DNA of 64,000 bases, taken from NCBI GenBank assembly GCA_000002435.2, contig CM018791.1; one strand, written 5' to 3'. The notes below the pieces were generated by a model, which saw only the letters and a list, made by a program, of their open reading frames with translations, was not told where the DNA came from and did not search any database. Numbering within the stretch: the first letter of the stretch is position 1; the number at the start of each line of letters is the position of its first letter. Below, one piece after another: positions 3,001 through 63,702 of this stretch. Source of the stretch: Giardia intestinalis (taxonomy: Eukaryota). The translations under genes were made by a program, and so were the position numbers.

Positions 3001-3300
3001 GTAGAGACTCACGGCTTGCTCTCTGGGACCCAAAGGTACCATCTTGCGTTCATAATGTGGATCGGGTCCTCGCGGCTCTCCTTCGCCTCAGGTCCAGCTG
3101 TGTGCACGCCCGCGGAACAGCCGAGGAACGCAGGACCCCAGATCCACAAACGGAGGGAGCTCTTCCCTATCACCGCTGTGGCTATCGTTGCGACCCGTGG
3201 CCAACCGTCGTCTCCAGACTGGCCGGGAATTGAGTGAGGCTTGCCCGTGAGATCTCTGGACCACACCGCAGACATGCCCCAGCGGCACACCACTGGAAGC
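1..3300 (-). mobile_element. Degenerate, 5'-truncated non-LTR retrotransposon of the R2/GENIE type (GilM/GilT/GilD-like); the window starts inside or near its 3' UTR
   Basis: Minus-strand ORF fragments carry the reverse-transcriptase motifs in the right order but in three different frames. Motifs 0-2 (KKASGVSGLGP...RRIPRS) sit at about 2255-2449. Motif A (SLDTKNALNSL) sits at about 1883-2107. Motif B (RRPQGDPLSMLLF) and motif C (FLAYADDIVAF) are in the 690-2141 frame. A CCHC finger (CPGCHTAW...H...C) lies in the 701-1228 frame. A REL-endonuclease signature (KPDIWLVDK...VDVGVIQP...KKY) follows near the 3' end of the 690-2141 frame. Positions 1-690 have no ORF, consistent with a 3' UTR. Confidence 0.6.
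690..2449 (-). pseudogene. Frameshifted RT-endonuclease polyprotein remnant of the retroelement above
   Basis: The YADD, PQGDPLS, CCHC and PD-(D/E)xK-like motifs are split across at least three reading frames, so no single ORF spans the RT. Confidence 0.6.
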
Positions 3301-3450
3301 AACCGGTGGGTGGAGTAAATGACTAGTTGCTTTTTACGCGCTGCTTCTGGATGCGCGAGTCTTCAATGTATGGCACAGGCACTCTATAACTGGCTAGTGT
3401 GCCCGACTACAGGCAAGCACCGAAAAACGTCAGTAATTAAAAATCTACTA

Positions 3451-21785: not shown

Positions 21786-22721
21786 ATGGACGATTCACGG
21801 AAGGCCTACGTCGTTGCACAGGATCTTCACAACGCGATAATGCAGCGTGACGCAATAACTATCAGCGAAATAACTGGGCGATATGTTTCTGGCTACAGGG
21901 AAAAGATTGCGCTTGCTTTCATGGAACAGTACAATGTACTCCCTGCGGACCTTTTCAAGGAGTGGGGGACCGGATATTTTGAATCCCTTATGATCCGCTG
22001 CTGGACCAATAGACACGAAGCCAGGGCAAAGATGCTAAAGGAAGCTATCCGCGGCGCTTTGGACAGAGACGCATTGGTGGACCTTGTGATTCTGTGCAGC
22101 ACAGATGACTGGGCTAGTACGCTTGTGCACTATCAGAAGCACTTCAGAATCGCGCTGAAGGCAGATATTCGCTTGAATATGCCGGCGGATCGACCATGGA
22201 AAGCACTAATTGATCGCTGGATGGAACACGACCGGCACTACAGAAACAATGTAAAGACGGACGCGCATATGCTGCTTCAAGCTTTAGAGGGAGGCAATGG
22301 AGCGGCCATCGTAGATATTCTGGTAACCACGAAGCCACAGGAATGGGAGAAGATTGTTGCTGCTTACGAGGAGCACACAAACAAGTCCTTGGAGACAGCT
22401 ATCTGCATGGCCTTCCCCGGCTTCGAGCAAACGGCGTTCTGTGCAGCGCACTACTGGCTCTGTGAGCCAAGCAAGGCAGCAGCATTCTTGATTCACCGTG
22501 CCTGCGAAGGCAAGCGAGGAGACTTTCGCCGTGTTTGCCGCATTACAAGCCTGGTGCTCGATCAGTGCCTTAAGTGCAAGTATGTGTATAGCGTCTATGG
22601 GCACCTGGCAGCAGACTTTCGCAAAACCTTCAGCGATAACACCGCCATCCCACTCATTTCCCTGTGGCGTGCATATGACATTGGTAAAATATTGGCAGAA
22701 AAACACGAGAACATCACTTAA
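21786..22721 (+). CDS. Alpha-giardin family paralog (annexin-like), 311 aa
   Basis: Four-repeat annexin-like architecture with the conserved C-terminal motif (...CKYVYSVYGHLAADFRKTFSDNTAIPLISLWRAY), matching the other alpha-giardins in the window. ATG start. Confidence 0.8.
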   Translation: MDDSRKAYVVAQDLHNAIMQRDAITISEITGRYVSGYREKIALAFMEQYNVLPADLFKEWGTGYFESLMIRCWTNRHEARAKMLKEAIRGALDRDALVDLVILCSTDDWASTLVHYQKHFRIALKADIRLNMPADRPWKALIDRWMEHDRHYRNNVKTDAHMLLQALEGGNGAAIVDILVTTKPQEWEKIVAAYEEHTNKSLETAICMAFPGFEQTAFCAAHYWLCEPSKAAAFLIHRACEGKRGDFRRVCRITSLVLDQCLKCKYVYSVYGHLAADFRKTFSDNTAIPLISLWRAYDIGKILAEKHENIT

Positions 22722-42312: not shown

Positions 42313-43218
42313 ATGTCCCTCACTGTATCCGACCTCACCACGGAGCTGAAGAAGATTATAGATAGCAAAAACGAGTCCGCTCTTGTCCAGTTGACTTCGC
42401 AGTATGCGTCGAAGCACCGAGATAAGGTTGTAATTAACTACAAGTCCATCTATGGGATGTACCCTGCCGATGCAATCAAGAAAGCTCTAAAGTCAGGGCC
42501 TGCTGAAACGCTTCTGATGTATGCGTGGACAGATGCACAGGAGGTGCGTGCACGCCTACTCAACCAGGCCCTCAGTGGCAAGAACAACAAGTCTGCACTG
42601 ATAGACGTCGTCCTCTTTTGCGGCCCAGAAGACTGGTACGAGATGGGAGCACACTACACGCGCATATTTCAGAAAGTGGCCAACGACACCCTGCTCAGTG
42701 ATATCGGCAGCTCTGAGCCGTGGTCGCAACTCATCAAGGGGTGGATCAAACACGACAGATACGAGCGCAAGGCTATTAGTGAGGATGCCGCGGCGCTCAT
42801 GGGCTACTTGGAATCTGGCAACCCCGATGGCCTGATCGATCTCCTGTGCAACACCACAGAGGGAGAGTGGAAAAAGATAAATAAGGTGTTCACAGAGAAG
42901 TACGGCGTCGAGGTGGAGACCCTTATTGCGTCCAACTACGTGAAGACAGACATGGAGGCCCTGCTTACCGCCCACTTCTACCTGCTACAGCCCGGCTATG
43001 CCGCTGCCTACCTATGCTCCCTCGCCAACTCTGGCAAAAAGGGCGATAGTGACCGGATGGTTCGCATCACCTCTCTTATGTTCGACAAGGCATTAAAGTG
43101 TAAGTTTGCGTATGAAAAGTACGGCAAGCTCGGCTCAGACTTTAAGCGCCTCTACGACGCCCGTCTCGGGCGAGCTCTTTGTGCACTTTGGCGTGTTGAC
43201 ACCGAAGGCGCAAACTAA
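42313..43218 (+). CDS. Alpha-giardin family paralog (301 aa)
   Basis: Annexin-like four-repeat protein with the family C-terminus (...[36 protein letters not shown]). ATG start preceded by AT-rich DNA. Confidence 0.8.
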
Positions 43219-43269: not shown

Positions 43270-44307
43270 ATGCCTGTTCTGACCCCCATAGGCGAGCTGG
43301 CAGAGAGTCTCTACAATGCGCTTAACCTCGTAGATTTTCAGGGAGCCGTAGCACTGGGATCAAGGTATCCGGCAGACCAAAGGGACAAGGTCCTTCCGCT
43401 GTTCATCACGAGGTATGGCGAGCTGCCCTCTGATATGATAGATAGGCTTTTTAAGCCACCGCAGAGAACAATCCTTGCTTATCTGTGGTCTCAGAAGCAC
43501 GAGGTGCGGGCGGCAATCCTTCTAAATGCAATCCGCACTTCGGATTATTCTACCATGATAGATCTGATTTTTCTTTCGTCGCACTCTGACTGGGAGTCTA
43601 TCCGCACACACTACACCAAAATGTGCGGTAGACAACTTGATGCCGATATCATCGGCAGCGTCAAGCCGAGTAAAAAGGAGGCTGCCCCAATATGGCCAGC
43701 TCTTGCCGAGGCCTGGCTACGTGGGACGCGTTCTGAGCGATACAATCCAGCAAACGAATCAGTACAGCTGGTGAATGCCATCAAACGGAAGGATTTCTCT
43801 GCCATAATATGGCTGATTGCCAATACGGTGTCCAGCGAGTGGGAAAAGATCGTTGCCATTACAGAGGAGGCCCTTGGGAGTACCCTTGAGGAGTTCTTTC
43901 TATGCAATCTTTCGTACGCAGATTGTGCGGCTTTCAGCATGGGTACAGGCGCTTTGATTAATCCCGGCCTTGGGGCAGCATTCGCCATATCCCGGGCCTG
44001 CTTTACGAATTACGAAGGAAAAGGGAAAGACACCCCCAAGGTGGAAAGGTCGGCCTCCAGACAGATGAAGGGATCAAAAAAGTTGAAAACTGGTACAATA
44101 AAGTTCGAGGAGACCCGCTCTTCCAAGAAGGGTGCAGAGTACAAGGGAGATGTGTCCCGACTAATCCGTGTATCGTCTCTCTTCTTCGACTCTTGTAATA
44201 AATGTAAGTTCTTCTATCGCAAGTACGGATCACTAGCAGCAGATCTGCGCTCTGGATTCGCGCCACCTTTATGCGAGGCCTTCATGCGGCTCTGGGATGT
44301 GGATTAG
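43270..44307 (+). CDS. Alpha-giardin family paralog (345 aa) with a lysine-rich insertion of ~42 aa in the last repeat
   Basis: Same fold as the gene 51 bp upstream. The extra segment DTPKVERSASRQMKGSKKLKTGTIKFEETRSSKKGAEYKGDV lies between ...NYEGKGK and SRLIRVSSLFFDSCNKCKFFYRKYG. Confidence 0.75.
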   Translation: MPVLTPIGELAESLYNALNLVDFQGAVALGSRYPADQRDKVLPLFITRYGELPSDMIDRLFKPPQRTILAYLWSQKHEVRAAILLNAIRTSDYSTMIDLIFLSSHSDWESIRTHYTKMCGRQLDADIIGSVKPSKKEAAPIWPALAEAWLRGTRSERYNPANESVQLVNAIKRKDFSAIIWLIANTVSSEWEKIVAITEEALGSTLEEFFLCNLSYADCAAFSMGTGALINPGLGAAFAISRACFTNYEGKGKDTPKVERSASRQMKGSKKLKTGTIKFEETRSSKKGAEYKGDVSRLIRVSSLFFDSCNKCKFFYRKYGSLAADLRSGFAPPLCEAFMRLWDVD

Positions 44308-49572: not shown

Positions 49573-50535
49573 TTAAGATATTCCTTCAACCTTATGAGAG
49601 ATGAATCCAGACTTGCAGCATGGACAGACTGCACGATCGGTAACTGATTCATAGACATCTAAGCAGTTACTATGGAATAAGGCACTACAACAAGAAACAG
49701 TTGAGACTGTGCAAGAGTCTTTCTCGGAGTCTGATGCTAGACTGATGAACGGTCCCTTGTATTCAAAGCTTTCAAAGCAGATGGGACATGCCATACTTTG
49801 ACGTTGACGTGTCTTCTCAATAACAGAGATCCAGTTGACTGCACGTGTGGCCATGAATGCTTCGAAGAGATCGTTAGTCTCATCTATTTCCTTTTGCAAG
49901 CGCCCTAACTCGCTGTCTAGCTTAACTCTTTGAGTAAGCAAGTAAGAATTCATATTATCTGCAGCGTGCTCTAGCTCTGCAACCAGAGCCCCTGTACTGC
50001 GCTTGCGAAGGGCTCTGTAACAGCGGCGTCCAAAATATCCCCGTATTGCTGCCTGGATGTCTCTGGCTGCTGAGATGCACATGTATGATTTCAAAAAGGA
50101 AGATTCGCGCATATTAGCAGGTGTCATACAAACTGGGCAACACCACCGAGCCTTCGACTGGGTCATCCAATTTACGAAGCACTCCTTATGAACTGCATGG
50201 CTGCAAGAAGAACATAGCATTTCAGAAGAGCCGAAGCGCTGAAGACATATAGGACAATGCCGTTCTTCCCGGACGATCCACTTTAATTCAGCTCTCCTCC
50301 ACTCTTCATCGGTCAATGGGGGAGGAAGAGTAGACGGCACAAGCTTCATGCGCTCTGCCCGCGTGCTTGGAGCTTGGCTATCGGTTGTAAACCTTGCTTT
50401 TTGGACAACACTGAAGCCTGGCTTCAGACCCATCTTGTGGAGATTATGAGACATCAGCGCTGATGATGCAGTGGCGACAGACCCTGACAAGCTTTTCAGG
50501 AGTTTCTGGGTAGAGAAGGATAAAGTAGGCCGCAT
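49573..50535 (-). CDS. RNF32-like protein: two RING-H2 fingers plus an IQ motif
   Basis: First finger: CPICLQRF...CSHAVHKECFVNWMT...CPVC. Second finger: CPICFESF...CCSALFHSNCLDVYE...CPCC. IQ motif: IQAAIRGYFGRRCYRALRK. ATG at 50533-50535 with AT-rich upstream DNA. Confidence 0.6.
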   Translation of the reverse strand: MRPTLSFSTQKLLKSLSGSVATASSALMSHNLHKMGLKPGFSVVQKARFTTDSQAPSTRAERMKLVPSTLPPPLTDEEWRRAELKWIVREERHCPICLQRFGSSEMLCSSCSHAVHKECFVNWMTQSKARWCCPVCMTPANMRESSFLKSYMCISAARDIQAAIRGYFGRRCYRALRKRSTGALVAELEHAADNMNSYLLTQRVKLDSELGRLQKEIDETNDLFEAFMATRAVNWISVIEKTRQRQSMACPICFESFEYKGPFISLASDSEKDSCTVSTVSCCSALFHSNCLDVYESVTDRAVCPCCKSGFISHKVEGIS

Positions 50536-51540
50536 GAAATGCCCGATTTGTTAATATTTACTATTACGCAAAATATACAGGAACAAAGATGGTCCCCTTG
50601 AAGAGGCCAGTGAAGAAGATAGTTCCCTCCCTGCCCACAGAGTCTACGTGACGCTACGGGCTCTTATTGCTGAAGTACTTGCTGACTAATTAAACTAAGC
50701 TCTTTGATAGAAAATAGATCATCGCACTACATAGGAGAATTGCATGCACAATAGCCTTACCGGCAGATAGGTAAAAAGCGAATGAAAAATTGTATTGTAC
50801 TATGAGCCAAACTTTATCTTATAAAGATTGAGGAATCCCAGGTAATATATAACGGTTTGAATGCCAGCAAGATTCGCGACCGCAGAGCACACTGCAATCT
50901 GGCGACTGGTTTGGCCATGCCGCTTCTTTATCCGTTAGAAACTCGGCTGGGAGCGACAAAGAGCACGTCGGGAGAACCCGGTGGGAGGGGACAGGCGGGG
51001 CTTTCTGCGCCACGGGGGGAACCACCGCAGGAGGACGTGCAGGCACGCAAGCCAGGCCACAGTAGACACGCGGGCGCCCCTGTAGACCGGGCCGGCAGCA
51101 GGCGTCCGTAGAATCCGCGCCAGAGCCAGCTGCTCAAAAAACTGGGCAGCCCCTGGTCGTGTGCAAGCCTTGCAGAGCACTGCGGCCCCCGACACTCGGC
51201 GACCCCTCTCAGAGCGGAAGACCCCGCGGGCCGCAGGCAGCAGCTCGTCGTCGGCGATGCCCCGAACGAGGGGGACGGCCCCAGCCTGCCCGCCTCCGCA
51301 GAGCTCCGGGTATCTGTAGACAAACCGGGGCTGCGCAGGGTGCGGCTCTCCCTGGCGGCCGAGGGCAGGGGTCCCCGGCAATACCAAAAAACTCCGATCA
51401 ATACATCAGCCCCGGCGCCGCCGTGTGCAAAGCAGTCTGTTCTGTGTGGCGGCCCAAGCCAGCTCGTACTGCGGCGATGGCCCGGGTGAGGGCGCCCTGC
51501 TCGCCCGACGGACCGGGGCAGGCAGGCAACAAACACCCGC

Positions 51541-51623
51541 TAAAGCTTTTATGCAAGGCCTGTACATATTTAATTTCACATTATTCGTTGGTCTGTTTTT
51601 AGTTTTATCGCTGCTTCTATCGG
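51541..51623 (+). promoter_or_regulatory. AT-rich island (ttatgcaaggcctgtacatatttaatttcacattattcgttggtctgtttttagttttatcg) abutting an ATG inside the GC-rich arm, likely a Giardia promoter. Its mirror copy sits at 61462-61544 (-)
   Basis: This roughly 80-bp A/T-rich segment is the only one within more than 1.5 kb of GC-rich DNA. It ends right at the ATG at 51624. Confidence 0.4.
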
Positions 51624-52433
51624 ATGGGCTCTGGGGCAATGACGGCGGAGACGCGCGCCTCCGTTCTGCTCGAGCTCGCGAAGCAGGTCGTCGCTGCCCG
51701 GCGGCTGGGAGAGACGGCCGAGAGCCTCGCGCGGCGGCCGCTGCTCCTCCACCGGCACGTGCTCCGGACGGCCATCGACTGGAAGAAGATCGCCCGCGCC
51801 CTGTCCGAGGACCGGAGCAGGATCTACCACTGGTACCGCGAGACGCACTCGCGGAGCATCCTCAACGTGAAGATGACCGGCGAGGACCGCAGGGCCATCA
51901 AGGCGATGATCATCGCCGGGGTCAGGGACCGGAGCGTCCTGGGCCCGGACTTCTACCGCAGGGTCCACGAGCGCTTCGGGGCGAAGTATCCGCGCCAGGA
52001 GCTGCGGATGACGTACAACAACGCGCTCCGCACCCAGGACGTCCGCGCCGCCCTGGAGGAGCACGGGGTGGTGCTGCCGCGCCGCACATACGGCCCGAGG
52101 GCGGCCAGGCAGGAGGAGGAGGCATCTCCTGTGGCGGCCACTCCCCCGCCCCCCTGCGTTTTTGGTTGCGCCGCGCCTCCGCTGGTGCCGCCCGTCGGGG
52201 GGCCGGTCTTTGTGGTCCCGGGCGCGGTCTCTGCGCTTCTGCCCCCGCACGCGCCGGGGTGCCTCGTCCTCGCCCTCCCACCCGGGGTCGTTCCTGGGCC
52301 CGGCGTCCTCCCGCTCCAGACGGGCCAGGGCCTCCTTGGGCCGCCCGTTGCCTTCGCGTGCGTGCCATGCTTCCCCCCTGCGGGCTACGGGGGCGTCCCT
52401 GGGTGCGCTGATGCGAGCCCCAGTAAGGGTTGA
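51624..52433 (+). CDS. Arm-encoded putative DNA-binding protein (269 aa): an N-terminal ~170-aa HTH/Myb-like domain plus a Pro-rich tail
   Basis: ATG start directly downstream of the AT island. The N-terminal sequence is non-repetitive (LELAKQVVAARRLGETAESLARRPLLLHRHVLRTAIDWKKIARALSEDRSRIYHWYRETHSRSILNV...) with a W-x17-W spacing reminiscent of Myb/HTH domains. The C-terminus is P/G/V-rich. Coding status is uncertain because the surrounding GC-rich DNA is open in all six frames. Confidence 0.35.
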   Translation: MGSGAMTAETRASVLLELAKQVVAARRLGETAESLARRPLLLHRHVLRTAIDWKKIARALSEDRSRIYHWYRETHSRSILNVKMTGEDRRAIKAMIIAGVRDRSVLGPDFYRRVHERFGAKYPRQELRMTYNNALRTQDVRAALEEHGVVLPRRTYGPRAARQEEEASPVAATPPPPCVFGCAAPPLVPPVGGPVFVVPGAVSALLPPHAPGCLVLALPPGVVPGPGVLPLQTGQGLLGPPVAFACVPCFPPAGYGGVPGCADASPSKG

Positions 52434-55314
52434 GGACTGGAGAACCCGGCTTGCTTGACGATTGTCGAAGAGTGGCCGGCAGGAACAGCCGATGGTTGGA
52501 TCCCTGATCAGTGACGAGACAGTTATATCTAGAGCGTGTAGCATGCTCAACCACGGCACAGCGCAGGGCCCACCAGACACAGGCTACGACGGTCTGGATG
52601 TCGCGCAACCCGCATTCTGCGCATTGCTGAAGAGACCACACACAGCAGACGAAGGCAGGGCTCTCCCATGTGCCCAGACGACTCGAACACCGCGGTCTGG
52701 GCCAACGATCTACCAGACAGGCCCGTCCGGTAACAGGCGACTGAATGCTCTCTGGGCCGTGAGCTAAAGCTGATGTGCAGCTGGCCGGCCACGACATTCA
52801 CCCTGGCTGGCCCTCTGTCTTCACGCGCCGACACGCCAAGGAGCTGTAGGGAAGTCGTGTGCTGTCTTGGCAGGTATATTATTACCTCCATGTATGCACC
52901 CTGGATGCGGCCACCATAGCACAGCTGCATCTCTGATCGTCCTGTACACGCCTCCTGGCACGAGTAGGTGCGCAGGAGGGGGTGCACTGCCCACCGCCGA
53001 GAAATGGATGAGCTCCCCTGCTCAGGAGCCGACGACCGCCAGCCATGCCCAACGAGGTCCCCTGCAAGGAGGCCTGCTGAGCCAGCTCTTCCAGCGAGCC
53101 GTGTATCTGGAAGAGCTCCGCGTTGAATGGCTCCTTGATTAAGGAAGCCGGAGTCCAGCGCGATGTGACGCCTGTCCGTCTAAGGCTGAGACTTCGGTCT
53201 GGTGCTTGCTGCTGAGCGAGCATTAAATGAGGCTGGCCAAAGAAGCGGCTCAGGGCTTTCATAGCTCTGTGTCTTCTTGTTCTGTTCGACTGAAACACCT
53301 GATCTCAGTGCTGACTGTTGGGTCTCCTCCTGTGGACGTGGTCCGGAAGTCTCACAGAGGACCTGTTTTTTTGTAATTTCTTCTAAGACGAAGGTAAGTC
53401 GTTCTATAGGATTAGGACTACATCTGTAGAAGCACAGCCCCGGTTAAAGCAGTAACATACAATTCGCAGATGCGTAGAATGCTTGCAGGAGAAAGCAGTA
53501 AGGAAAGATATCTCGATCATGACATAGACGTGAGACAGCACCACAGGCTGCCCAAGCAACCGGTCTGGATACGAGGTGCGGCATGATTACCCTTATCTAT
53601 CCTTTGCCAGGTGAGGGAATTCGACATAGAGCCTAGTCACCCTAACGGTCAGAACCAAAGGCAAAAGCTAGACCTGTGGTGTGTTGGCAAGTGATGGACA
53701 CAAGGGCATCCCTGGATGGACTGTTGCATGAGAGGGCGAAGGCCCATAGAGATGGGTTGCTCTCAGCACCTGCAGTGGGCAGCTTGCTCCGCGGCCAACA
53801 AGTTGTTGGGTCAGAAACAAGCACGGACGATGCCTGTCAGATGGGTCCGAGCCAGTCACCCGATGCCCCCTACGGGCCTCGTCCAACCGACACTCTTGAT
53901 TCTTGTCGAATAGCTCAGACAGACTGGGGAGAGGAAGGACTACCAGTCACCAGAGCTTGCTGCAGTGGGAGAGCCGGGCTTGGCTCGTCCCCGTCTTCAC
54001 ACAAGAGCGGGGAAGTGGGTTTACTTGCGGGACCCTTGGGCCGCGGCTGCAGGGGGGCTCAGTACTAGAGCGCTAGAAATAGCTGGCTGTCGAAGTAAAT
54101 CGTCGCTTTCCGGGGATGACATCTTCCTCGACCAGGGCAGCAGAAGAGACCCTCAATGCATCTGCCGGTGCTGGGGTGCGTCCTACCCGTCAGCGGGGCT
54201 TCATGGCTCCACTGGAAAGCCCAATCGTCCGCTTCTTGCTGTGCTCAGAGGACAGAGAACTAGGCAGGCGTAGTCCCATCCGCCCACCGGAGGGCTATGA
54301 GCGCCCCCGTCGTCCCATTGAGCAGCACCAGGCGCAGAAGAGGTCTGCCGGAAATGCGCCAGATGCAGTCAACGCTTTTCTGGGTGTAGTGTTAACAGAA
54401 TCACACGCTACGACGCGTCCCAGACAGGCTCCACCTGGCAGCGGCGCCCCAGAGGCGGGCCCCGAGGGACAAAACATTTCTGGCCCTGCCCCTGCTCCAA
54501 TGCGAGCGGCCCGCGGACAGAGCCGAGGACGGGGGCCAGTGCTCGGCCTCCTGCTGGTGCGGTGGCGCCGGGAGACCACCGGACCATCGACTCGGCAGCG
54601 GCAACCGGTGGAACGCCCTGGGCTGCTGCTGTGCCCATGCGCCTGGAGCGCGCCGCAGCAGCCCGGGATGGGTCCGCAGACAGGCGTGCCGCCCCAGCCG
54701 TCCCGGGGGCCGGCTCCTCGTGGCGGGCGCTCCTGCTCCCTTTGACTTTTCAAATGGAGAACGCAGTTATGGATCCTAGTTCTGCTGCAGAAGGTGCCTT
54801 ATGAGACGCAGCACAGCCACACCAAGCGGTATCGGGGCTGAACACTCCTTGGGACGGGCTCCTGGCGCATCTGAGAGACGCTCGTTGCTGTGCACTGCCT
54901 CTCGGGCCTTGGATGCACGTTGTGCAGAGCTGCAGGAGTCGCCCTTGCAGTTGTCAGTGGGCCGTTGATGGAGCCATTGAAAGCTCTGGACCGCTACTGG
55001 GCAGTACTGTCCCAGTGCACGTGTGGCAGCTTTGGCTCGCACTGGATGGTCCGTACAGATTGCAACGGAGCCACGAGGTGCATTAGTATGACATACACAT
55101 TGAGACAGTTGCAGTTCTATTCGGTCCAATCCACCTCCTTCTGGCCCTGTGCCGAGATTGCAGATTGCAAGTAGTGTTCGCGATAGACCCGGTGAGTGTT
55201 GATTCCATCAGCGCCTGTGGTCAACGTGTGCCAGAAGGATCAATCAACTGCATCAATCGACGCGGATTGACTGATGTACCGCGAGTATGTTCCTACCAAT
55301 CTATCAATCGGGCA

Positions 55315-57534
55315 ATGTTTGGCAGTTTTGTTCTCGCGGGGGTACTCGTCCAGATTGCATGGGCAGGAAAAGCAACAGAGCGCGCGCAAGAAGCTCAATG
55401 CGCAGATAACACTAATTGCGCAGCAGAAGCATGCAACGTTCTGATCGGTGGTAAATTGTATTGCTCTCGATGTAACACAGGATTTGTTCCTATCAATGGA
55501 CAATGTGCAGACAAAGAAGGTGCAACAGATAAGTGCAAAGATGGCTCCGGAGGCGATACAGCTGATCAGACCTGTGGACAGTGCGCCGAGCAGACTTTCA
55601 TGTACAAGGGCGGCTGTTACGAAGCAGCCCAGCAGCCCGGACAGACCATGTGTCAGGCGGCAGATGCTGGAGTATGCACACAAGCCGCGCAAGGATACTT
55701 CGTGCCGCCGGGCGCAGACGCCTCTCACCAATCGGTTATACCATGTGGAGACGAAGAGGAAATAACGGTTAAAAACGATAAAAAGTACAAGGGCGTGCTG
55801 CACTGCACTCGGTGTAACGCTCCCACAGAAGCAGCAGATGCTAACGCCAAGGCCGCCACATGCACTGCGTGCCAGGCAGATAGGTATCTGAAGACAGCCA
55901 AGGACCAAGCCACCTCCTGCGTGACAGAGCAAGAGTGCACCGGCACCGAAGGGTTCTTCGCGAAAAATGGCGGCACCAAAACCTGTGAGGCGTGCGCTGA
56001 AACATGCAAGACCTGTAAGACCGAGGCTGCGAAGTGCACCTCTTGCAAGGACGACAAGCCGTACCTGAAGAAGGATAATGGCAGCGACACTGGCACGTGC
56101 GTCACCGAAGCTGAGTGCAAGACTGGAAACACCCACTACCCCGACGACACTGAGCCGAAGACGTGCAAGACGTGCGCCGAGGGGACCTCCGACGGGTGTG
56201 CGACGTGCGAGAAGGGCGCCGATGGAGCAGTCGCCTGCAAGACGTGCGGAAACCAGAAGAAGGTCCAGCCAAACAAGAAGGGGTGCGTTGAGAACTGCCC
56301 CTCGAACTCCAACGATAAGAAGACCCCTGGCACCTGTGAGTGCGTTGAGGGCTACGTTCCCGAGGAGGCCGGCACCGGGTGCACGAAGAAGCCCGACCCC
56401 CCTGCGGCGCCGTGCAACACCCCCGGCTGCAAGACGTGCAGTGAGCCGAAGACAAGCAAGGAGGTGTGCACAGAGTGCGAAGACCCCAAGGCCCTCACGC
56501 CCACGGGCCAGTGCATCTACGGTTGTGAGCACCTGGAAGGCTACTACGAGGGCACCAGCGAGGGGGGCAAGAAGGCCTGCAAGAAGTGCGAGGTCGAGAA
56601 CTGCCTCCTGTGCAACGAAAACGGACAGTGCGAGACCTGCAAGGACGGATACTACAAGAAAGAAACCGCCTGTGCCAAGTGCGATACCTCGTGCAAGACG
56701 TGCGCGAACGGGGAGCCCAACGGGTGCACGAGCTGCGAGGCTAAGAAGGCCCTCAGCTACGAAGGAGAGGGCAACACGGGGACGTGCAAATCAGAATGCA
56801 AACCGGGTACTAACAACTGCGAGAAGTGCGAGCTGACAGTCGATGGCACGGCCTACTGCTCCAAGTGCAAGGACGCCAACCAGTTCCCGCAGAACGGAGT
56901 CTGCTCGGCGGCGGCCGGAAAGGCTATTACGTGCACTACCAAAGGGACTGGTGTCTGTGACAAATGCGCCAACGGGCTTCTTCGGATGAACGGAGGCTGC
57001 TATGAGACGACCAAGTTCCCTGGAAAGAGCGTCTGTGAGGAAGCAGCATCGGCTGGGGATACCTGCCAAGTAGAGGCTCCAGGCTATCATCTTAATAACA
57101 ATGACCTTGTGACTTGCTCGGCCGGATGTAAGACGTGCACTAGTAACACCGTGTGTACTGAATGCATGGATGGGTATGCAAAGACTGATAATAAGTGCAC
57201 AAAGTGTGCCACTGGCTGTGCTACTTGTGCAGGATCCGCCTCAAATTGCGACACTTGCAGCACTGGGTACTACAAGTATAAGAACGCCTGTGTGTCTTGC
57301 ACGGAAAGCAACAGTGATAAGACTATCACCGGCGTCGCCAACTGCGCCAACTGCGCTCCTCCACTCAACAATAAAGGGTCTGTCCTCTGCTACCTCGTGC
57401 AGAGTGGCGAGAACACTAACAAAAGTGGTCTCAGCGCAGGCGCCATCGCGGGCATCGCTGTTGCTGTCATCATTGTTGTCGGCGGCCTCGTCGGTTTCCT
57501 TTGCTGGTGGTTTATGTGCAGAGGCAAGGCGTAG
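55315..57534 (+). CDS. Variant-specific surface protein (VSP), complete
   Basis: Signal peptide MFGSFVLAGVLVQIAWA. More than 40 CXXC motifs. GGCY motifs (YKGGCYEA, MNGGCYETT). A C-terminal transmembrane helix followed by the invariant CRGKA tail (...FLCWWFMCRGKA*). The track start 55165 is TTG, and the first ATG in frame before the signal peptide is 55315. Confidence 0.9.
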   Translation: MFGSFVLAGVLVQIAWAGKATERAQEAQCADNTNCAAEACNVLIGGKLYCSRCNTGFVPINGQCADKEGATDKCKDGSGGDTADQTCGQCAEQTFMYKGGCYEAAQQPGQTMCQAADAGVCTQAAQGYFVPPGADASHQSVIPCGDEEEITVKNDKKYKGVLHCTRCNAPTEAADANAKAATCTACQADRYLKTAKDQATSCVTEQECTGTEGFFAKNGGTKTCEACAETCKTCKTEAAKCTSCKDDKPYLKKDNGSDTGTCVTEAECKTGNTHYPDDTEPKTCKTCAEGTSDGCATCEKGADGAVACKTCGNQKKVQPNKKGCVENCPSNSNDKKTPGTCECVEGYVPEEAGTGCTKKPDPPAAPCNTPGCKTCSEPKTSKEVCTECEDPKALTPTGQCIYGCEHLEGYYEGTSEGGKKACKKCEVENCLLCNENGQCETCKDGYYKKETACAKCDTSCKTCANGEPNGCTSCEAKKALSYEGEGNTGTCKSECKPGTNNCEKCELTVDGTAYCSKCKDANQFPQNGVCSAAAGKAITCTTKGTGVCDKCANGLLRMNGGCYETTKFPGKSVCEEAASAGDTCQVEAPGYHLNNNDLVTCSAGCKTCTSNTVCTECMDGYAKTDNKCTKCATGCATCAGSASNCDTCSTGYYKYKNACVSCTESNSDKTITGVANCANCAPPLNNKGSVLCYLVQSGENTNKSGLSAGAIAGIAVAVIIVVGGLVGFLCWWFMCRGKA

Positions 57535-57542
57535 ACTTAGAT

Positions 57543-57549
57543 AGTAAAT
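57543..57549 (+). terminator. Giardia poly(A) signal AGTAAAT downstream of the VSP stop
   Basis: tag acttag at AGTAAAT g sits 9-15 nt after the TAG at 57532-57534 and matches AGTRAAY. Confidence 0.45.
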
Positions 57550-58324
57550 GCGTCGATTCGCCTTCTTAAGGCGTGGAACTCTCGTTACGTCCACACTGCA
57601 AATGTGCTTGACGATTTCTAACATCTGGATTTTGTATAGCAGTCTGGAGTCGTGTGTGTGACTTTACTTTTATTCCACACTTCCAATAGTTTGCCACTGG
57701 ACTTCGCCTGCAAATGCAGCCTAGGAGTGCATGAATAAATAAACTTACATGTCTTCTTGGTAGAGCAAAGCAGACCCCTACTTGAGGACTTGGACCCGCT
57801 ACTCTATGCTTGTATCTGACGTAGTCGCACTTAGCCAAGGTGCACACCCTACTATCACTCGATAGCTCACCCTCTCGTTGTCTTAAAGGAGCAGCTCTTA
57901 GACTGCTGCCCAGTTGACTTTACCAAGTACTTGCTTATTTAAGCGAACTGTGAACGAACTTTCTGAATACCAGGTGAACCCTTATATCTAAAGACTACGA
58001 CACGTTCCTCATGTTCCAGTTCTACTGTAGTGACCTGTGAGGATGGTTGTATCCAATCTCAGTCCTCCAGCATATAGAGTATACACTAGTAACCATTTGT
58101 ACTTCATAACCTGTCTTTGTCTTCGAACGTGACTGAGCGACCGGATTATTCGCATGGGTTTAGCCCATATCTAAATAAGATCGAGAAGAGGCCACAAGAA
58201 TACTTTCTATAGCAAAGCTGGAGCTGCTAGCTACATATGCAACAGTTAGCCCCGCACCAGCAATCGATGCAACGGGGATGTGTGCCCACCCGAGCAGTAC
58301 ACAGCTGGCTACCCGTAATTATGC

Positions 58325-61300
58325 TCTCCATTTGAAAAGTCAAAGGGAGCAGGAGCGCCCGCCACGAGGAGCCGGCCCCCGGGACGGCTGGGGCGGCACG
58401 CCTGTCTGCGGACCCATCCCGGGCTGCTGCGGCGCGCTCCAGGCGCATGGGCACAGCAGCAGCCCAGGGCGTTCCACCGGTTGCCGCTGCCGAGTCGATG
58501 GTCCGGTGGTCTCCCGGCGCCACCGCACCAGCAGGAGGCCGAGCACTGGCCCCCGTCCTCGGCTCTGTCCGCGGGCCGCTCGCATTGGAGCAGGGGCAGG
58601 GCCAGAAATGTTTTGTCCCTCGGGGCCCGCCTCTGGGGCGCCGCTGCCAGGTGGAGCCTGTCTGGGACGCGTCGTAGCGTGTGATTCTGTTAACACTACA
58701 CCCAGAAAAGCGTTGACTGCATCTGGCGCATTTCCGGCAGACCTCTTCTGCGCCTGGTGCTGCTCAATGGGACGACGGGGGCGCTCATAGCCCTCCGGTG
58801 GGCGGATGGGACTACGCCTGCCTAGTTCTCTGTCCTCTGAGCACAGCAAGAAGCGGACGATTGGGCTTTCCAGTGGAGCCATGAAGCCCCGCTGACGGGT
58901 AGGACGCACCCCAGCACCGGCAGATGCATTGAGGGTCTCTTCTGCTGCCCTGGTCGAGGAAGATGTCATCCCCGGAAAGCGACGATTTACTTCGACAGCC
59001 AGCTATTTCTAGCGCTCTAGTACTGAGCCCCCCTGCAGCCGCGGCCCAAGGGTCCCGCAAGTAAACCCACTTCCCCGCTCTTGTGTGAAGACGGGGACGA
59101 GCCAAGCCCGGCTCTCCCACTGCAGCAAGCTCTGGTGACTGGTAGTCCTTCCTCTCCCCAGTCTGTCTGAGCTATTCGACAAGAATCAAGAGTGTCGGTT
59201 GGACGAGGCCCGTAGGGGGCATCGGGTGACTGGCTCGGACCCATCTGACAGGCATCGTCCGTGCTTGTTTCTGACCCAACAACTTGTTGGCCGCGGAGCA
59301 AGCTGCCCACTGCAGGTGCTGAGAGCAACCCATCTCTATGGGCCTTCGCCCTCTCATGCAACAGTCCATCCAGGGATGCCCTTGTGTCCATCACTTGCCA
59401 ACACACCACAGATCTAGCTTTTGCCTTTGGTTCTGACCGTTAGGGTGACTAGGCTCTATGTCGAATTCCCTCACCTGGCAAAGGATAGATAAGGGTAATC
59501 ATGCCGCACCTCGTATCCAGACCGGTTGCTTGGGCAGCCTGTGGTGCTGTCTCACGTCTATGTCATGATCGAGATATCTTTCCTTACTGCTTTCTCCTGC
59601 AAGCATTCTACGCATCTGCGAATTGTATGTTACTGCTTTAACCGGGGCTGTGCTTCTACAGATGTAGTCCTAATCCTATAGAACGACTTACCTTCGTCTT
59701 AGAAGAAATTACAAAAAAACAGGTCCTCTGTGAGACTTCCGGACCACGTCCACAGGAGGAGACCCAACAGTCAGCACTGAGATCAGGTGTTTCAGTCGAA
59801 CAGAACAAGAAGACACAGAGCTATGAAAGCCCTGAGCCGCTTCTTTGGCCAGCCTCATTTAATGCTCGCTCAGCAGCAAGCACCAGACCGAAGTCTCAGC
59901 CTTAGACGGACAGGCGTCACATCGCGCTGGACTCCGGCTTCCTTAATCAAGGAGCCATTCAACGCGGAGCTCTTCCAGATACACGGCTCGCTGGAAGAGC
60001 TGGCTCAGCAGGCCTCCTTGCAGGGGACCTCGTTGGGCATGGCTGGCGGTCGTCGGCTCCTGAGCAGGGGAGCTCATCCATTTCTCGGCGGTGGGCAGTG
60101 CACCCCCTCCTGCGCACCTACTCGTGCCAGGAGGCGTGTACAGGACGATCAGAGATGCAGCTGTGCTATGGTGGCCGCATCCAGGGTGCATACATGGAGG
60201 TAATAATATACCTGCCAAGACAGCACACGACTTCCCTACAGCTCCTTGGCGTGTCGGCGCGTGAAGACAGAGGGCCAGCCAGGGTGAATGTCGTGGCCGG
60301 CCAGCTGCACATCAGCTTTAGCTCACGGCCCAGAGAGCATTCAGTCGCCTGTTACCGGACGGGCCTGTCTGGTAGATCGTTGGCCCAGACCGCGGTGTTC
60401 GAGTCGTCTGGGCACATGGGAGAGCCCTGCCTTCGTCTGCTGTGTGTGGTCTCTTCAGCAATGCGCAGAATGCGGGTTGCGCGACATCCAGACCGTCGTA
60501 GCCTGTGTCTGGTGGGCCCTGCGCTGTGCCGTGGTTGAGCATGCTACACGCTCTAGATATAACTGTCTCGTCACTGATCAGGGATCCAACCATCGGCTGT
60601 TCCTGCCGGCCACTCTTCGACAATCGTCAAGCAAGCCGGGTTCTCCAGTCCTCAACCCTTACTGGGGCTCGCATCAGCGCACCCAGGGACGCCCCCGTAG
60701 CCCGCAGGGGGGAAGCATGGCACGCACGCGAAGGCAACGGGCGGCCCAAGGAGGCCCTGGCCCGTCTGGAGCGGGAGGACGCCGGGCCCAGGAACGACCC
60801 CGGGTGGGAGGGCGAGGACGAGGCACCCCGGCGCGTGCGGGGGCAGAAGCGCAGAGACCGCGCCCGGGACCACAAAGACCGGCCCCCCGACGGGCGGCAC
60901 CAGCGGAGGCGCGGCGCAACCAAAAACGCAGGGGGGCGGGGGAGTGGCCGCCACAGGAGATGCCTCCTCCTCCTGCCTGGCCGCCCTCGGGCCGTATGTG
61001 CGGCGCGGCAGCACCACCCCGTGCTCCTCCAGGGCGGCGCGGACGTCCTGGGTGCGGAGCGCGTTGTTGTACGTCATCCGCAGCTCCTGGCGCGGATACT
61101 TCGCCCCGAAGCGCTCGTGGACCCTGCGGTAGAAGTCCGGGCCCAGGACGCTCCGGTCCCTGACCCCGGCGATGATCATCGCCTTGATGGCCCTGCGGTC
61201 CTCGCCGGTCATCTTCACGTTGAGGATGCTCCGCGAGTGCGTCTCGCGGTACCAGTGGTAGATCCTGCTCCGGTCCTCGGACAGGGCGCGGGCGATCTTC

Positions 61301-62224
61301 TTCCAGTCGATGGCCGTCCGGAGCACGTGCCGGTGGAGGAGCAGCGGCCGCCGCGCGAGGCTCTCGGCCGTCTCTCCCAGCCGCCGGGCAGCGACGACCT
61401 GCTTCGCGAGCTCGAGCAGAACGGAGGCGCGCGTCTCCGCCGTCATTGCCCCAGAGCCCATCCGATAGAAGCAGCGATAAAACTAAAAACAGACCAACGA
61501 ATAATGTGAAATTAAATATGTACAGGCCTTGCATAAAAGCTTTAGCGGGTGTTTGTTGCCTGCCTGCCCCGGTCCGTCGGGCGAGCAGGGCGCCCTCACC
61601 CGGGCCATCGCCGCAGTACGAGCTGGCTTGGGCCGCCACACAGAACAGACTGCTTTGCACACGGCGGCGCCGGGGCTGATGTATTGATCGGAGTTTTTTG
61701 GTATTGCCGGGGACCCCTGCCCTCGGCCGCCAGGGAGAGCCGCACCCTGCGCAGCCCCGGTTTGTCTACAGATACCCGGAGCTCTGCGGAGGCGGGCAGG
61801 CTGGGGCCGTCCCCCTCGTTCGGGGCATCGCCGACGACGAGCTGCTGCCTGCGGCCCGCGGGGTCTTCCGCTCTGAGAGGGGTCGCCGAGTGTCGGGGGC
61901 CGCAGTGCTCTGCAAGGCTTGCACACGACCAGGGGCTGCCCAGTTTTTTGAGCAGCTGGCTCTGGCGCGGATTCTACGGACGCCTGCTGCCGGCCCGGTC
62001 TACAGGGGCGCCCGCGTGTCTACTGTGGCCTGGCTTGCGTGCCTGCACGTCCTCCTGCGGTGGTTCCCCCCGTGGCGCAGAAAGCCCCGCCTGTCCCCTC
62101 CCACCGGGTTCTCCCGACGTGCTCTTTGTCGCTCCCAGCCGAGTTTCTAACGGATAAAGAAGCGGCATGGCCAAACCAGTCGCCAGATTGCAGTGTGCTC
62201 TGCAGCCGGGGATCTTGCTGGCAT
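58325..62224. repeat. Right arm (3,900 bp) of the inverted repeat, the mirror of 50861-54760
   Basis: The coordinate mapping is x maps to 113085 minus x. The only difference I found inside the arms is left 53673 C versus the complement of right 59412 A. A short mismatch patch lies at the outer ends (left 50874-50883). Confidence 0.9.
60652..61461 (-). CDS. Second, identical copy of the arm-encoded putative HTH/Myb-like protein
   Basis: Its translation is identical to that of 51624-52433. The mirrored AT-island lies upstream at 61462-61544. Confidence 0.35.
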   Translation of the reverse strand: MGSGAMTAETRASVLLELAKQVVAARRLGETAESLARRPLLLHRHVLRTAIDWKKIARALSEDRSRIYHWYRETHSRSILNVKMTGEDRRAIKAMIIAGVRDRSVLGPDFYRRVHERFGAKYPRQELRMTYNNALRTQDVRAALEEHGVVLPRRTYGPRAARQEEEASPVAATPPPPCVFGCAAPPLVPPVGGPVFVVPGAVSALLPPHAPGCLVLALPPGVVPGPGVLPLQTGQGLLGPPVAFACVPCFPPAGYGGVPGCADASPSKG

Positions 62225-62913
62225 CTCACGCGACCGGGCTCTGGGTGTGCCTGCTCAACAGTAGCTACCTCATCCACAGAGTGCTGATGCAGATATTATG
62301 CGCTACGTATCAGTGACCACAGGGGCACCGATAGACAGGGTCTCAGCCTCAGTGCACAACGAAGGTTATCAAGCATAGCGAGGCTTACATACTGAGCATG
62401 GGTCCGTGCCCCGCGTGGTCTTCTTAAGAACTAGTGCATGAGTGTTTGTGAGACGATGCTATCCGTATGAGGCGGGCTATCCGTCGTACGCGAAGTGCAG
62501 TACGGCAGAAGTGGGTGATGCAGGAACCAGAGGGGGTGCTTCAGCACATCAGTCGTCGGCCCCTCTGCCTTCTGTCACGCCTGATGGACTCTCCTCTACT
62601 ATCGCAACTCAGTCGTGGTTGTCTGAGGAGAGGACTAGGTATTCAGTAGACAATGGAATCGCGTGGCCTGGACGCGATTTCGTGATGGCCAACACGGGTT
62701 ATCAGGCTGGCTGTGGTCTGGATATGTGGTACAGCTTCCTTCACTCAAGCAGGGGTTAACACCTGCACTAATACAGATCTACAATAAGACATACACCATG
62801 CCCAGTACAGTTGAAAGATAAAACAGAAAGATATTATATTAAACGATAGTTATATTTGCCGTCAATTGTTATTAATAGAGCTAACACCCCTGGTCAAAAA
62901 AACGTTCGCTGTG

Positions 62914-63702
62914 ATGTCCCGGCATTGGGTCCACACCCCGTCAAACACGATAGTATGGGCTGCAAACAGCATGGTTCCTGGCGAAGAGCTGCCTGGAGTT
63001 CCGAATACCTCTCTTCCTGGCCAAGGAGTTGTTCGGGTGGACGAATCTTTCGTCGCGAGTGTCGTGGGAAACATGAAGCAGGTTGGCAAGATAGTGTCTG
63101 TTCAGCCATCGTGTTTACACATCTACGAACCTGTCACAGCAGATGTCGTCCTTGGGCGCGTCGTTCGTCTTCTGCCGAATAAGTGGGTCCTGGACATAGG
63201 TGCAATACAGCATGCTACTCTCCACATTGATAACTTGAACATACCGGGGATCCAGCGGGTAAGGGACACTGCAGATGAAAGCAATATGCGCCAGTGGCTT
63301 GACGTGGATCAGCTTATTTCGTGCGAGGTAAAGCAGGGCTATGCACTTCTTACTCGGAGTGCACAGTTCGGGGTGTTGAACCATGGCGTACTAGTGAAGG
63401 TGCCTCCTTGCGCAGTGGGCCCATCGACTACCGCGTTTGCAAACCTGGACTCTCTGAATGTGCATGTTATTCTCGGCAGGAATGGATGGATTTGGATTTC
63501 TGAGATGCGGAATCCCAGTGATACTAGAGAGACAGTTCGAGACAGTGCATCTCCGACTCCTTCCAAGGAGCAACTGCAAGCGATATCCCATGTAGCGCAA
63601 CTTTTACAGACCATGTGTGCCGCTGGAGAGCGTGTTACTCCTGCGTCCATCCTTTCAGCAAGCAAAAGGCATCTCGAACCCGGATGCTCTCCTAAGACTT
63701 AG
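62914..63702 (+). CDS. RRP4: Exosome complex component RRP4 (EXOSC2) homolog
   Basis: Alignment to human EXOSC2: YEPVTADVVLGRVVRLLPNKWVLDIGA...LPGIQRVRDTADESNMRQWLDVDQLISCEVKQGYALLTRSAQFGVLNHGVLVKVPPCAV...VHVILGRNGWIWIS matches YIGEVGDIVVGRITEVQQKRWKVETNS...[65 protein letters not shown]...ASVILGNNGFIWIY, covering the S1 and KH regions. The track start 62866 is TTG. The first ATG (MSRHW) is at 62914 after AT-rich DNA. Confidence 0.8.
   Translation: MSRHWVHTPSNTIVWAANSMVPGEELPGVPNTSLPGQGVVRVDESFVASVVGNMKQVGKIVSVQPSCLHIYEPVTADVVLGRVVRLLPNKWVLDIGAIQHATLHIDNLNIPGIQRVRDTADESNMRQWLDVDQLISCEVKQGYALLTRSAQFGVLNHGVLVKVPPCAVGPSTTAFANLDSLNVHVILGRNGWIWISEMRNPSDTRETVRDSASPTPSKEQLQAISHVAQLLQTMCAAGERVTPASILSASKRHLEPGCSPKT

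Follow-up and report, generated by a model that had tools for sequence, protein, structure and literature searches.

An 11.4-kb palindrome of Giardia intestinalis WB with vsp9B10A in its loop and a dispersed non-VSP gene segment in its arms

Inverted pairs of identical VSP genes have been described in Giardia intestinalis WB, and up to now 14 (Adam 2010, PMC2996952) and 19 (Xu 2020, PMC7000408) such pairs, that of vsp1267 included, have been reported, with spacers of 2,190-3,847 bp in the former work and mostly of 2.5-3.8 kb in the latter. Here we describe an 11.4-kb palindrome with vsp9B10A in its loop, found in a window of 64,000 nucleotides (the whole stretch of DNA that was analysed) of contig CM018791.1. 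The locus resembles the known pairs in that kb-scale, near-identical inverted copies enclose a unique spacer, which at 3,540 bp lies in the published range, in that the copies diverge abruptly at the repeat ends, in that short-read assemblies show contig breaks there, and in the convergent (-> <-) order of the duplicated genes, which is the commonest arrangement among the pairs. It is absent from the 19 pairs of Xu 2020 (PMC7000408), and Adam 2010 (PMC2996952) does not mark vsp88, which is 9B10A, as belonging to a pair. What sets the locus apart is the duplicated unit, here a non-VSP gene together with 3 kb of non-coding DNA, whereas the VSP gene is single-copy and sits in the spacer; it is a newly recognised case among the known inverted duplications of Giardia.

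Large inverted repeats of other organisms offer further comparisons. The palindromes P1-P8 of the human Y chromosome have arms of 9 kb to 1.45 Mb which carry genes and are reportedly maintained by arm-to-arm gene conversion, and inversion polymorphism of their spacers is known. The Giardia locus shares with them arms of about 99.97% identity which would be older than their divergence, a unique spacer, genes in the arms, and a divergence gathered at the ends of the arms, beyond the conversion tracts; it differs in its 3.9-kb arms, in the gene of interest lying in the spacer, and in the host, a tetraploid binucleate protist. Flip-flop isomerisation takes place at the large inverted repeats of plastid genomes and of the yeast 2-micron plasmid. 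As in these, recombination would homogenise the repeats and the unique segment probably exists in both orientations, but unlike the 2-micron plasmid, which has the site-specific recombinase FLP, the locus is chromosomal and encodes no recombinase. In bacterial switches such as Hin/hix, fimS and the shufflons, repeats of tens of bp with an adjacent site-specific recombinase allow an inversion that parts the promoter from the gene. A surface-antigen locus, flanking inverted repeats and a probable invertibility are in common with our case; the short repeats, the adjacent recombinase and the separation of promoter and gene are all absent from it.

Geometry and contents of the palindrome

The strain of the window is WB, and the chromosome which carries the locus measures 1.97 Mb and has the number 3 in Adam 2010. 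A single inverted pair was reported by the repeat search, with 3,912 nt per arm (left arm 50861-54772, GC 63%; right arm 58313-62224) and 3,540 nt between the arms. The arms were also compared base by base on mirrored coordinates, left and right positions adding up to 113085, and the cores (50882-54760 against 62203-58325) were found to differ at one position in 3,879 bp, where C at 53673 faces A at 59412 (complement T), a C/T difference. It is impossible that a 3.9-kb repeat of this quality arose by chance. The edge zones, that is the outer terminal 21 nt and the inner 12 nt, hold 9 of the 10 arm mismatches: four fall within the 8 nt of an outer patch (50874-50881, mirror 62204-62211) and five within the 12 nt of an inner one (54761-54772, mirror 58313-58324), so that patches with 19-40% mismatches adjoin a perfect core. 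Local alignment found no homology between the two sides past the arm edges, where the similarity ends abruptly.

The sequence-only reading had proposed inverted repeats at 50861-54760 and 58325-62224, with a mirror partner for every arm ORF, one substitution (53673 C versus the complement of 59412 A) and a mismatch patch at the outer junctions. Both the repeat search and the base-by-base comparison bear this out: all arm ORFs are mirrored, the substitution is the sole core mismatch, and the outer patch has an inner counterpart; the 3,564-bp spacer of that reading results from assigning the degenerate inner 12 nt to the spacer and describes no other structure. Tandem repeats were not found across 50-63 kb, nor Rfam matches over the whole window. 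A bacterial promoter and terminator scan of the window was set aside as inapplicable to Giardia.

The structure recurs in an independent assembly of WB from ONT and Illumina reads (Pollo 2020), in which contig utg53_pilon carries the VSP gene at 77798-80014 between mirrored ORFs, 75375-75752 (minus) with 82309-82686 (plus) and 75960-76073 (plus) with 81988-82101 (minus). In short-read data of other samples, four independent contigs stop at 50911, just where the arms turn identical and 30 nt beyond 50881, the last base that distinguishes them, and the contigs of the right flank begin only at 62526-62724.

The spacer (54773-58312) is unique, without a second copy within the window, and is the segment that would be inverted between the proposed isomers. 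It holds vsp9B10A (GL50803_101074, "VSP with INR"; 55315-57534, plus strand; 739 aa; Pfam VSP, E = 5e-153), whose protein ends in CRGKA and is 100% identical to that deposited as KAE8302587.1, XP_001706983.1 and AAG16629.1 (P0038). The initiator CAATGTT stands at its ATG, at 55313-55319 and hence inside the spacer. Directly 3' of the stop codon, at 57535-57549 on the plus strand, lies the VSP-type extended motif ACTTAGATAGTAAAT, the poly(A) signal known from Giardia VSP 3' ends. The Pfam match, CRGKA and this motif agree with the earlier proposal of a single intact VSP gene with its own poly(A) signal. The vsp9B10A primers of the literature have exact matches at 55297-55326 and 57510-57531, and the supplement of Adam 2010 (PMC2996952) gives 9B10A as GL50803_101074, on chromosome 3, with 739 aa and CAATGTT.

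Each arm has one real gene with about 3 kb of non-coding, GC-rich sequence behind it. The gene encodes 269 aa (GL50803_0060974 / GL50803_00d60974; the "d" in a locus tag denotes a duplicated gene, Xu 2020, PMC7000408) and lies at 51624-52433 on the plus strand in the left arm and, with an identical protein, at 60652-61461 on the minus strand in the right arm, both copies reading towards the spacer in a convergent pair. The protein is identical to P0020, deposited as KAE8302586.1 and KAE8302588.1, which in accession order bracket the VSP, KAE8302587. Its residues 8-150 are predicted to form an all-helical domain (pLDDT about 90), and it is possibly a Myb/SANT-like helical protein. Pfam gave no match in the large arm ORFs or in the arm translated in six frames, neither a VSP remnant nor a reverse transcriptase or transposase, a profile search of PDB sequences gave none either, and a scan of JGI metagenomes for the family found no relatives. 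The arm gene, whose protein is uncharacterised, is a member of a dispersed non-VSP family of Giardia, and the arms are not related to VSP genes, each of them being a copy of a dispersed non-VSP gene segment with no Pfam domain in six frames.

Age and homogeneity of the arms

The left flank holds a single-copy RING-finger gene (49573-50535, minus strand; Pfam zf-RING_2) and the right flank a single-copy gene with an Rrp4-like S1 domain (62971-63702, plus strand; PF21266 S1_RRP4). With the RING-finger gene as an anchor, loci L001-L010 were retrieved. The comparison with other isolates that had been suggested for this locus found a left flank-arm junction, at which the flank is followed by ATGCCAGCAAGAT, identical in L001, L002 (DH) and L003, which like WB belong to assemblage A. 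Between WB and L001 the arm shows 212 substitutions (94.5% identity, that is 5.5% diverged) and the flank 98.3% identity, while the two arms of WB itself differ by the one core substitution. In a divergent assemblage (L017 and L018, at about 74% nucleotide identity), no arm was found by the RING-finger gene in contigs which are shorter than the whole locus. Upstream of the RING-finger gene these two carry ankyrin-repeat-like sequence.

On the other side, sequence past the right arm (62225-62753) continues to be homologous to other family loci, namely to L014 till 62249, to L016 till 62270 and to L015 till 62753. This shows the right copy to be a full, resident member of the family and the left arm a truncated copy, since a copy which runs past the repeat into family homology cannot be derived from the left arm. 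In the outer patch 50874-50881, the bases of the left arm are those of the family copy at the kinesin locus of DH. Taken together, a left junction common to strains with a 5.5% diverged arm and a right copy which runs into family sequence argue that both copies are old. The age of the arms would thus exceed their mutual divergence, with the right arm seen directly in WB only and its age read from its flank.

P15 paralogues at different loci are 98.7% identical whereas syntenic orthologues of assemblages A and E are 83% identical, from which it follows that the family evolves in concert; the kinesin-locus copy is syntenic between A and E and therefore positionally stable. Within the arm, the gene is the part best kept between strains (97.7% against 93.7% elsewhere in the arm). 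Gene conversion appears to be the mechanism which homogenises the arms of WB, and mismatches at the arm edges only are what is expected where conversion tracts seldom reach the ends. One large recent conversion event in WB, instead of continuous homogenisation, would look the same.

Regarding the origin of the locus, we consider it likely that it is an old inverted segmental duplication whose arms are kept identical by conversion, with flipping of the spacer as a by-product and without any programmed switch. A resident member of the dispersed, Giardia-specific family would have given rise, across vsp9B10A, to an inverted copy which is truncated at 50861, and this duplication would predate the split of the assemblage A sub-lineages. 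Since then arm-to-arm gene conversion would have kept the arms identical, by the same process that would homogenise the family genome-wide.

An improbable account, though one with evidence in its favour, is that the inverted duplication arose very recently in the WB lineage, so that the arms had no time to diverge and conversion is unneeded. The single difference in 3,879 bp fits it, as does the duplicated share of the WB genome, 6.9% (Xu 2020, PMC7000408). However, it has to face a left junction common to strains in which the arm differs from that of WB by 5.5%, a right copy which reaches past the repeat into family sequence and so is no copy of the left arm, and edge patches with 19-40% mismatches beside a perfect core. 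The sequence-only reading had left the near-identity to either a very recent duplication or ongoing homogenisation; the shared left junction, the diverged L001 arm and a family that evolves in concert speak for the latter and against the former.

Spacer orientation and other readings of the locus

L001 shows the left flank and arm followed by the spacer from its end at 58312, through junction sequence of the right type, an orientation opposite to that of the reference, L001 being a short-read metagenome contig across a 3.9-kb repeat whose path may be the choice of the assembler. Published Sniffles INV calls with 15 and 24 reads have window breakpoints at 51437/61663 and 52501/60597; their sums (113100 and 113098 against the mirror sum of 113085) put them at mirrored places inside the arms, in calls which are IMPRECISE, give no counts of reference reads (DR = 0 among the rows listed) and come from an unvalidated set of 162 inversion calls. 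The L001 join and the mirrored breakpoints together indicate that the spacer is probably present in both orientations. Under the duplication-and-conversion origin preferred above, crossovers accompanying arm recombination would invert the 3.5-kb spacer to give two isomers, and the inversion would be a by-product of homologous recombination and not a programmed switch. With a spacer of 3.5 kb, a DNA hairpin or cruciform is unlikely.

The arm genes point at the spacer from opposite sides, so that transcription running on from the right copy would yield antisense vsp9B10A RNA. It is nevertheless very unlikely that the locus by itself supplies dsRNA or siRNA to the Dicer/RdRP pathway of Giardia, tying vsp9B10A and/or the arm family to RNAi silencing. 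If it did, RNA transcribed across the two arms would form a hairpin of 3.9 kb that loops out the VSP, and the flip of the spacer would determine the strand of the VSP reached by read-through from each side. A literature search for the arm gene IDs, or for siRNA or inverted-repeat work at the vsp9B10A locus, found none.

A surface-antigen gene between inverted repeats, with evidence for both orientations from L001 and the Sniffles calls, also recalls the invertons of bacterial phase variation, yet a programmed invertible switch for vsp9B10A expression is scarcely credible here. Pfam showed no recombinase domain in a six-frame translation of the arm or in the scanned VSP and RING-finger ORFs, and the repeats are of 3.9 kb and not of tens of bp. 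Inversion is unlikely to switch expression, since a flip leaves about 4 kb per side unchanged, so that the VSP keeps its neighbourhood in cis (about 4.4 to 4.7 kb on either side), and the promoter and initiator lie inside the spacer: initiator and poly(A) motif travel together, the promoter stays coupled to the coding sequence, and with identical arms the cis context is equal in either orientation. Moreover, VSP switching is described as epigenetic in Adam 2010 (PMC2996952), and HDAC inhibitors induce vsp9B10A (PMC7066823). Of the invertible cassette which the sequence-only reading had imagined, the two orientations are thus probable, but neither a recombinase nor a short recombination site was found that would make it a programmed one.

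It is equally hard to believe in a composite mobile element, that is two inverted copies of a transposable element with the VSP as cargo: a six-frame Pfam scan of the arm brought up neither a transposase nor an integrase or reverse transcriptase domain, the flanks lack a target-site duplication (the left flank ends in ...CGGTTTGA and the right one begins with CTCACGCGACC, and these differ), the family homology of the right copy crosses the repeat boundary, and the kinesin-locus copy, syntenic in A and E, is positionally stable. Finally, although chimeric long reads can yield perfect palindromes, the worry that the reference holds a mis-joined or chimeric inverted duplication is almost certainly unfounded, as the same mirrored structure stands in two independent long-read assemblies, PacBio (Xu 2020) and ONT+Illumina (Pollo 2020), the 3.5-kb spacer is unique and so is each flank, the breaks of independent short-read contigs fall at the base where they are predicted, and the outer junctions sit in differing, biologically sensible contexts.

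Implications for Giardia

The place of vsp9B10A in the loop of a palindrome with apparently recombining arms has consequences for experimental work, since monoclonal antibodies exist for few VSPs, this one among them, and it is a standard reporter where antigenic variation is studied by tagging or with HDAC inhibitors. Two isomers may be encountered in PCR assays and with knock-in or tagging constructs at vsp9B10A, and short-read assemblies and SNP calls at the locus are unreliable. The convergent arm genes are a specific possible source of vsp9B10A antisense RNA, by antisense or read-through transcription. More generally, the inverted duplications of Giardia with spacers of roughly 3 kb extend beyond VSP genes, and gene conversion, both interlocus and arm-to-arm, would act on a non-VSP family as well, which bears on the homogeneity of repeats in a tetraploid organism with little evident sex.

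The inverted repeat and the gene that it encloses

Between 48 and 64 kb a repeat search returned one inverted pair only, with arms at 50861-54772 and 58313-62224 that are 3,912 nt long each and lie 3,540 nt apart. The arms were compared base by base through their mirrored coordinates, which sum to 113085. The core of 3,879 bp (50882-54760) holds 1 mismatch, C at 53673 on the left against A at 59412 on the right, and the remaining mismatches are confined to two short edge patches, an outer one at 50874-50881 (4 mismatches) and an inner one at 54761-54772 (5 mismatches), past both of which similarity between the arms is absent. The G+C content of the arms is 63%, against ~50% in the adjoining 40 kb. 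The structure had been described by a sequence-only reading as two near-identical inverted arms around a complete VSP gene, and all checkable details of this description proved correct in the repeat search, the mirrored comparison and the analysis of the spacer.

The only intact VSP gene in the spacer occupies 55315-57534 (Pfam VSP, E = 5e-153), with the initiator CAATGTT at its ATG and the motif ACTTAGATAGTAAAT directly 3' of its stop codon. Its protein is 100% identical to KAE8302587.1 / XP_001706983.1 / AAG16629.1, named 'VSP with INR', on the 1,973,847-bp chromosome of the reference strain WB. The published primers for vsp9B10A (GL50803_101074; PMC7066823) match exactly at both ends of the gene, and in the supplementary data of Adam et al. 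2010 (PMC2996952) 9B10A appears as GL50803_101074, on chromosome 3, with 739 aa and CAATGTT; therefore the spacer gene is vsp9B10A, a standard model VSP.

The worry that the repeat might be a mis-joined assembly is answered by two kinds of data. Four short-read contigs from several independent samples, anchored on the single-copy RING gene of the left flank (49573-50535(-)), stop at 50911, which is 30 nt beyond 50881, the last base distinguishing the arms. This would be the exact behaviour of a k = 31 graph at a two-copy repeat, k = 31 being the setting of the Logan assemblies. The same palindrome is also present, at an offset of +22,483, on utg53_pilon in the structural-variant supplementary table of Pollo et al. 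2020, which is based on their own nanopore+Illumina assembly of WB; there GL50803_101074 lies at 77798-80014, together with two mirrored pairs of old-annotation ORFs, 75375-75752(-) / 82309-82686(+) and 75960-76073(+) / 81988-82101(-), and a gene of the arm family at 83141-83947(-). The inverted repeat is not an assembly artefact.

The arm gene, its family and the identity of the arms

Most of the ORFs mirrored between the arms are low-complexity artefacts of GC-rich DNA, and one is real. This gene, at 51624-52433(+) with its mirror at 60652-61461(-), is identical to GL50803_0060974 and GL50803_00d60974, whose accessions KAE8302586.1 and KAE8302588.1 sit either side of the VSP's KAE8302587.1. 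Since the 'd' in the locus tag denotes a duplicated gene (Xu et al. 2020 annotation, PMC7000408), the duplication was already recorded at the gene level by the WB reference annotators. These identities make the window part of the PacBio reference of WB.

The family of the arm protein is small, and no Pfam domain was found for it; when 1.84 billion cluster representatives were searched, 67 of them matched. At least seven copies with >90% amino-acid identity are located on four chromosome-scale records of different lengths in WB, and copies also occur in DH, P15 and GS. Apart from the arm genes, the family copies of WB include GL50803_0061066, 00103981, 00137682, 00114778 and 00112150. The N-terminal 150 residues of the protein are conserved and are predicted to form nine helices in a confident fold, and the C-terminal half is disordered and proline-rich. 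An invariant motif block reads W..IA...R.RIYHWYRETH.R...KMT..DR and Y.R.ELRMTYNN, and the predicted nine-helix domain has weak similarity to Myb/SANT/HTH DNA-binding folds. In the remainder of each arm, ~3.1 kb, coding content was not detectable. Some ~2.3 kb of it, 52434-54772 with the mirror 58313-60651, is GC-rich, up to 72% GC near 54461-54760, and gave neither a coding signal nor an RNA family; within this non-coding part, 52903-53858 is 68% identical to a paralogous locus in DH.

The outer junctions were aligned with family copies from other loci. On the right the family homology continues past the repeat, to 62270 with the DH copy at the kinesin locus and to 62753 with a P15 copy, and on the left the arm has a sharp start at 50861, within an unrelated AT-rich flank. 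By these junctions the right copy is a complete resident member of the family, and the left arm a truncated copy derived from it. The right flank of the repeat, 62225-62753, is itself dispersed-family sequence (78% identical to the P15 copy) and the right-side short-read contigs start only at 62526-62724, so the repeated region on the right is longer than the inverted repeat.

The left junction of WB is common to three other assemblage A sources (L001, L002 from DH, and L003), whose sequences are clearly diverged from WB; the arm of L001 differs from that of WB by 212 substitutions (94.5% identity), and the 11.3-kb flank is 98.3% identical. In L018, a contig of a much more divergent assemblage (sample ERR3333378, ~74% nucleotide identity), positions 1-689 upstream of the RING orthologue are ankyrin-repeat-like sequence, and the arm was not found there in this short contig. 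The position at which the assemblages differ is precisely the start of the left arm in assemblage A. This one short contig suggests that the left arm was gained on the branch that gave rise to assemblage A.

Two explanations had been offered for the near-identity of the arms, a very recent duplication and ongoing homogenisation. Had the two arms been independent since the split of L001 and WB, they should differ at a few per cent of sites, ~100 or more, against the 1 difference in WB; together with the left junction shared by diverged strains, this favours homogenisation over recency. The position of the mismatches, grouped at the very ends of the arms, is consistent with conversion tracts that seldom extend that far. 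Two P15 copies from separate loci share 98.7% identity, and only 83% is shared by the copies that P15 and DH have at the syntenic kinesin/Cpn60/Rer1 locus (assemblages E vs A); within assemblage A, identity between separate loci (95.9%) is as high as that between strains at one locus (95.6%). These comparisons show concerted evolution of the arm family as a whole. The near-identity of the arms is best explained by gene conversion, which is clearly indicated, and not by recency. In L014 and L015 from P15 and L016 from DH, compared with 50861-52395, a 1.5-kb 'head' of upstream region and ORF is homogenised, and between loci the downstream part is only ~68% identical.

Orientation of the spacer

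The L001 locus, a 39-kb ENA metagenome contig, runs from the left flank through the arm to the 58312 end of the spacer and on to the VSP 3' end, and its inner-junction sequence is that at the right arm of WB; in this contig, then, the spacer has the inverse orientation with respect to the left flank, the contig itself being built from short reads across the 3.9-kb repeat. Pollo et al. 2020 also list two Sniffles inversion calls on utg53_pilon, 73920-84146 (15 reads; window 51437/61663, sum 113100) and 74984-83080 (24 reads; window 52501/60597, sum 113098), both flagged IMPRECISE, given without reference-read counts and, for this locus, neither discussed nor validated. Since the sums are near 113085, the breakpoints lie inside the arms at mirrored positions, which would be the exact pattern expected if reads that carry the flipped spacer were split in alignment. 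With these two independent hints, it is fairly probable that the two orientations of the spacer co-exist or are polymorphic.

Of the invertible VSP cassette proposed earlier, the two orientations thus gain ground, and the programmed switch is unsupported, as no feature points to one. A recombinase domain was not found by Pfam in the arm ORFs or the six arm frames, the repeats are kilobases long, and the VSP initiator and poly(A) signal are both within the spacer. With identical arms, an inversion would not alter the surroundings of the VSP: 542 bp + 3.9 kb of upstream sequence and 778 bp + 3.9 kb of downstream sequence are the same both ways. VSP switching is ascribed to an epigenetic mechanism in a passage of Adam 2010 (PMC2996952), and HDAC inhibitors can induce vsp9B10A (PMC7066823). 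A role of the locus in antigenic switching is likewise unsupported. The 3.5-kb spacer makes formation of a DNA hairpin or cruciform unlikely. Both arm genes point towards the VSP, in convergent orientation; transcription running on from the right copy would be predicted to yield RNA antisense to vsp9B10A, and a transcript over both arms would be predicted to form a long hairpin.

Relation to other inverted repeats

The mechanistically closest analogues of the locus are human Y-chromosome palindromes, with arm-to-arm gene conversion and ~99.97% arm identity, and the flip-flop inverted repeats of plastid genomes. By their defining tests, the locus is neither a bacterial inverton nor a composite transposon.

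Elsewhere in the window, a 483-aa ORF at 690-2141(-), in the GC-rich region 1-4000, has a reverse-transcriptase match (Pfam RVT_1, E = 2.5e-11) and is probably what remains of a Giardia non-LTR retrotransposon; reverse-transcriptase remnants have been noted in the intervals of several divergent VSP pairs (Xu 2020, PMC7000408). An isolated 36-bp match (94%) between 3281-3316 in this region and 13188-13223 of L016, downstream of the DH kinesin-locus family copy, may reflect a short repeat common to both or be due to chance. The window also has three annexin-type (alpha-giardin-like) genes, at 21786-22721, 42313-43218 and 43270-44307; a tandem of two of these lies immediately upstream of the 1737-aa gene before the RING gene.

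In Giardia WB, identical inverted VSP pairs 2-4 kb apart number 14 (Adam 2010, PMC2996952) or 19 (Xu 2020, PMC7000408). They share with this locus the geometry, copy identity, abrupt boundaries and convergent orientation, but here the duplication is of a non-VSP gene segment, and the spacer is where the VSP lies; the locus is in neither list of pairs, and vsp9B10A is not marked as paired in Adam 2010. The feature is real and belongs to Giardia's inverted segmental duplications, and it is of interest mainly because its loop holds a VSP in wide use as a model.
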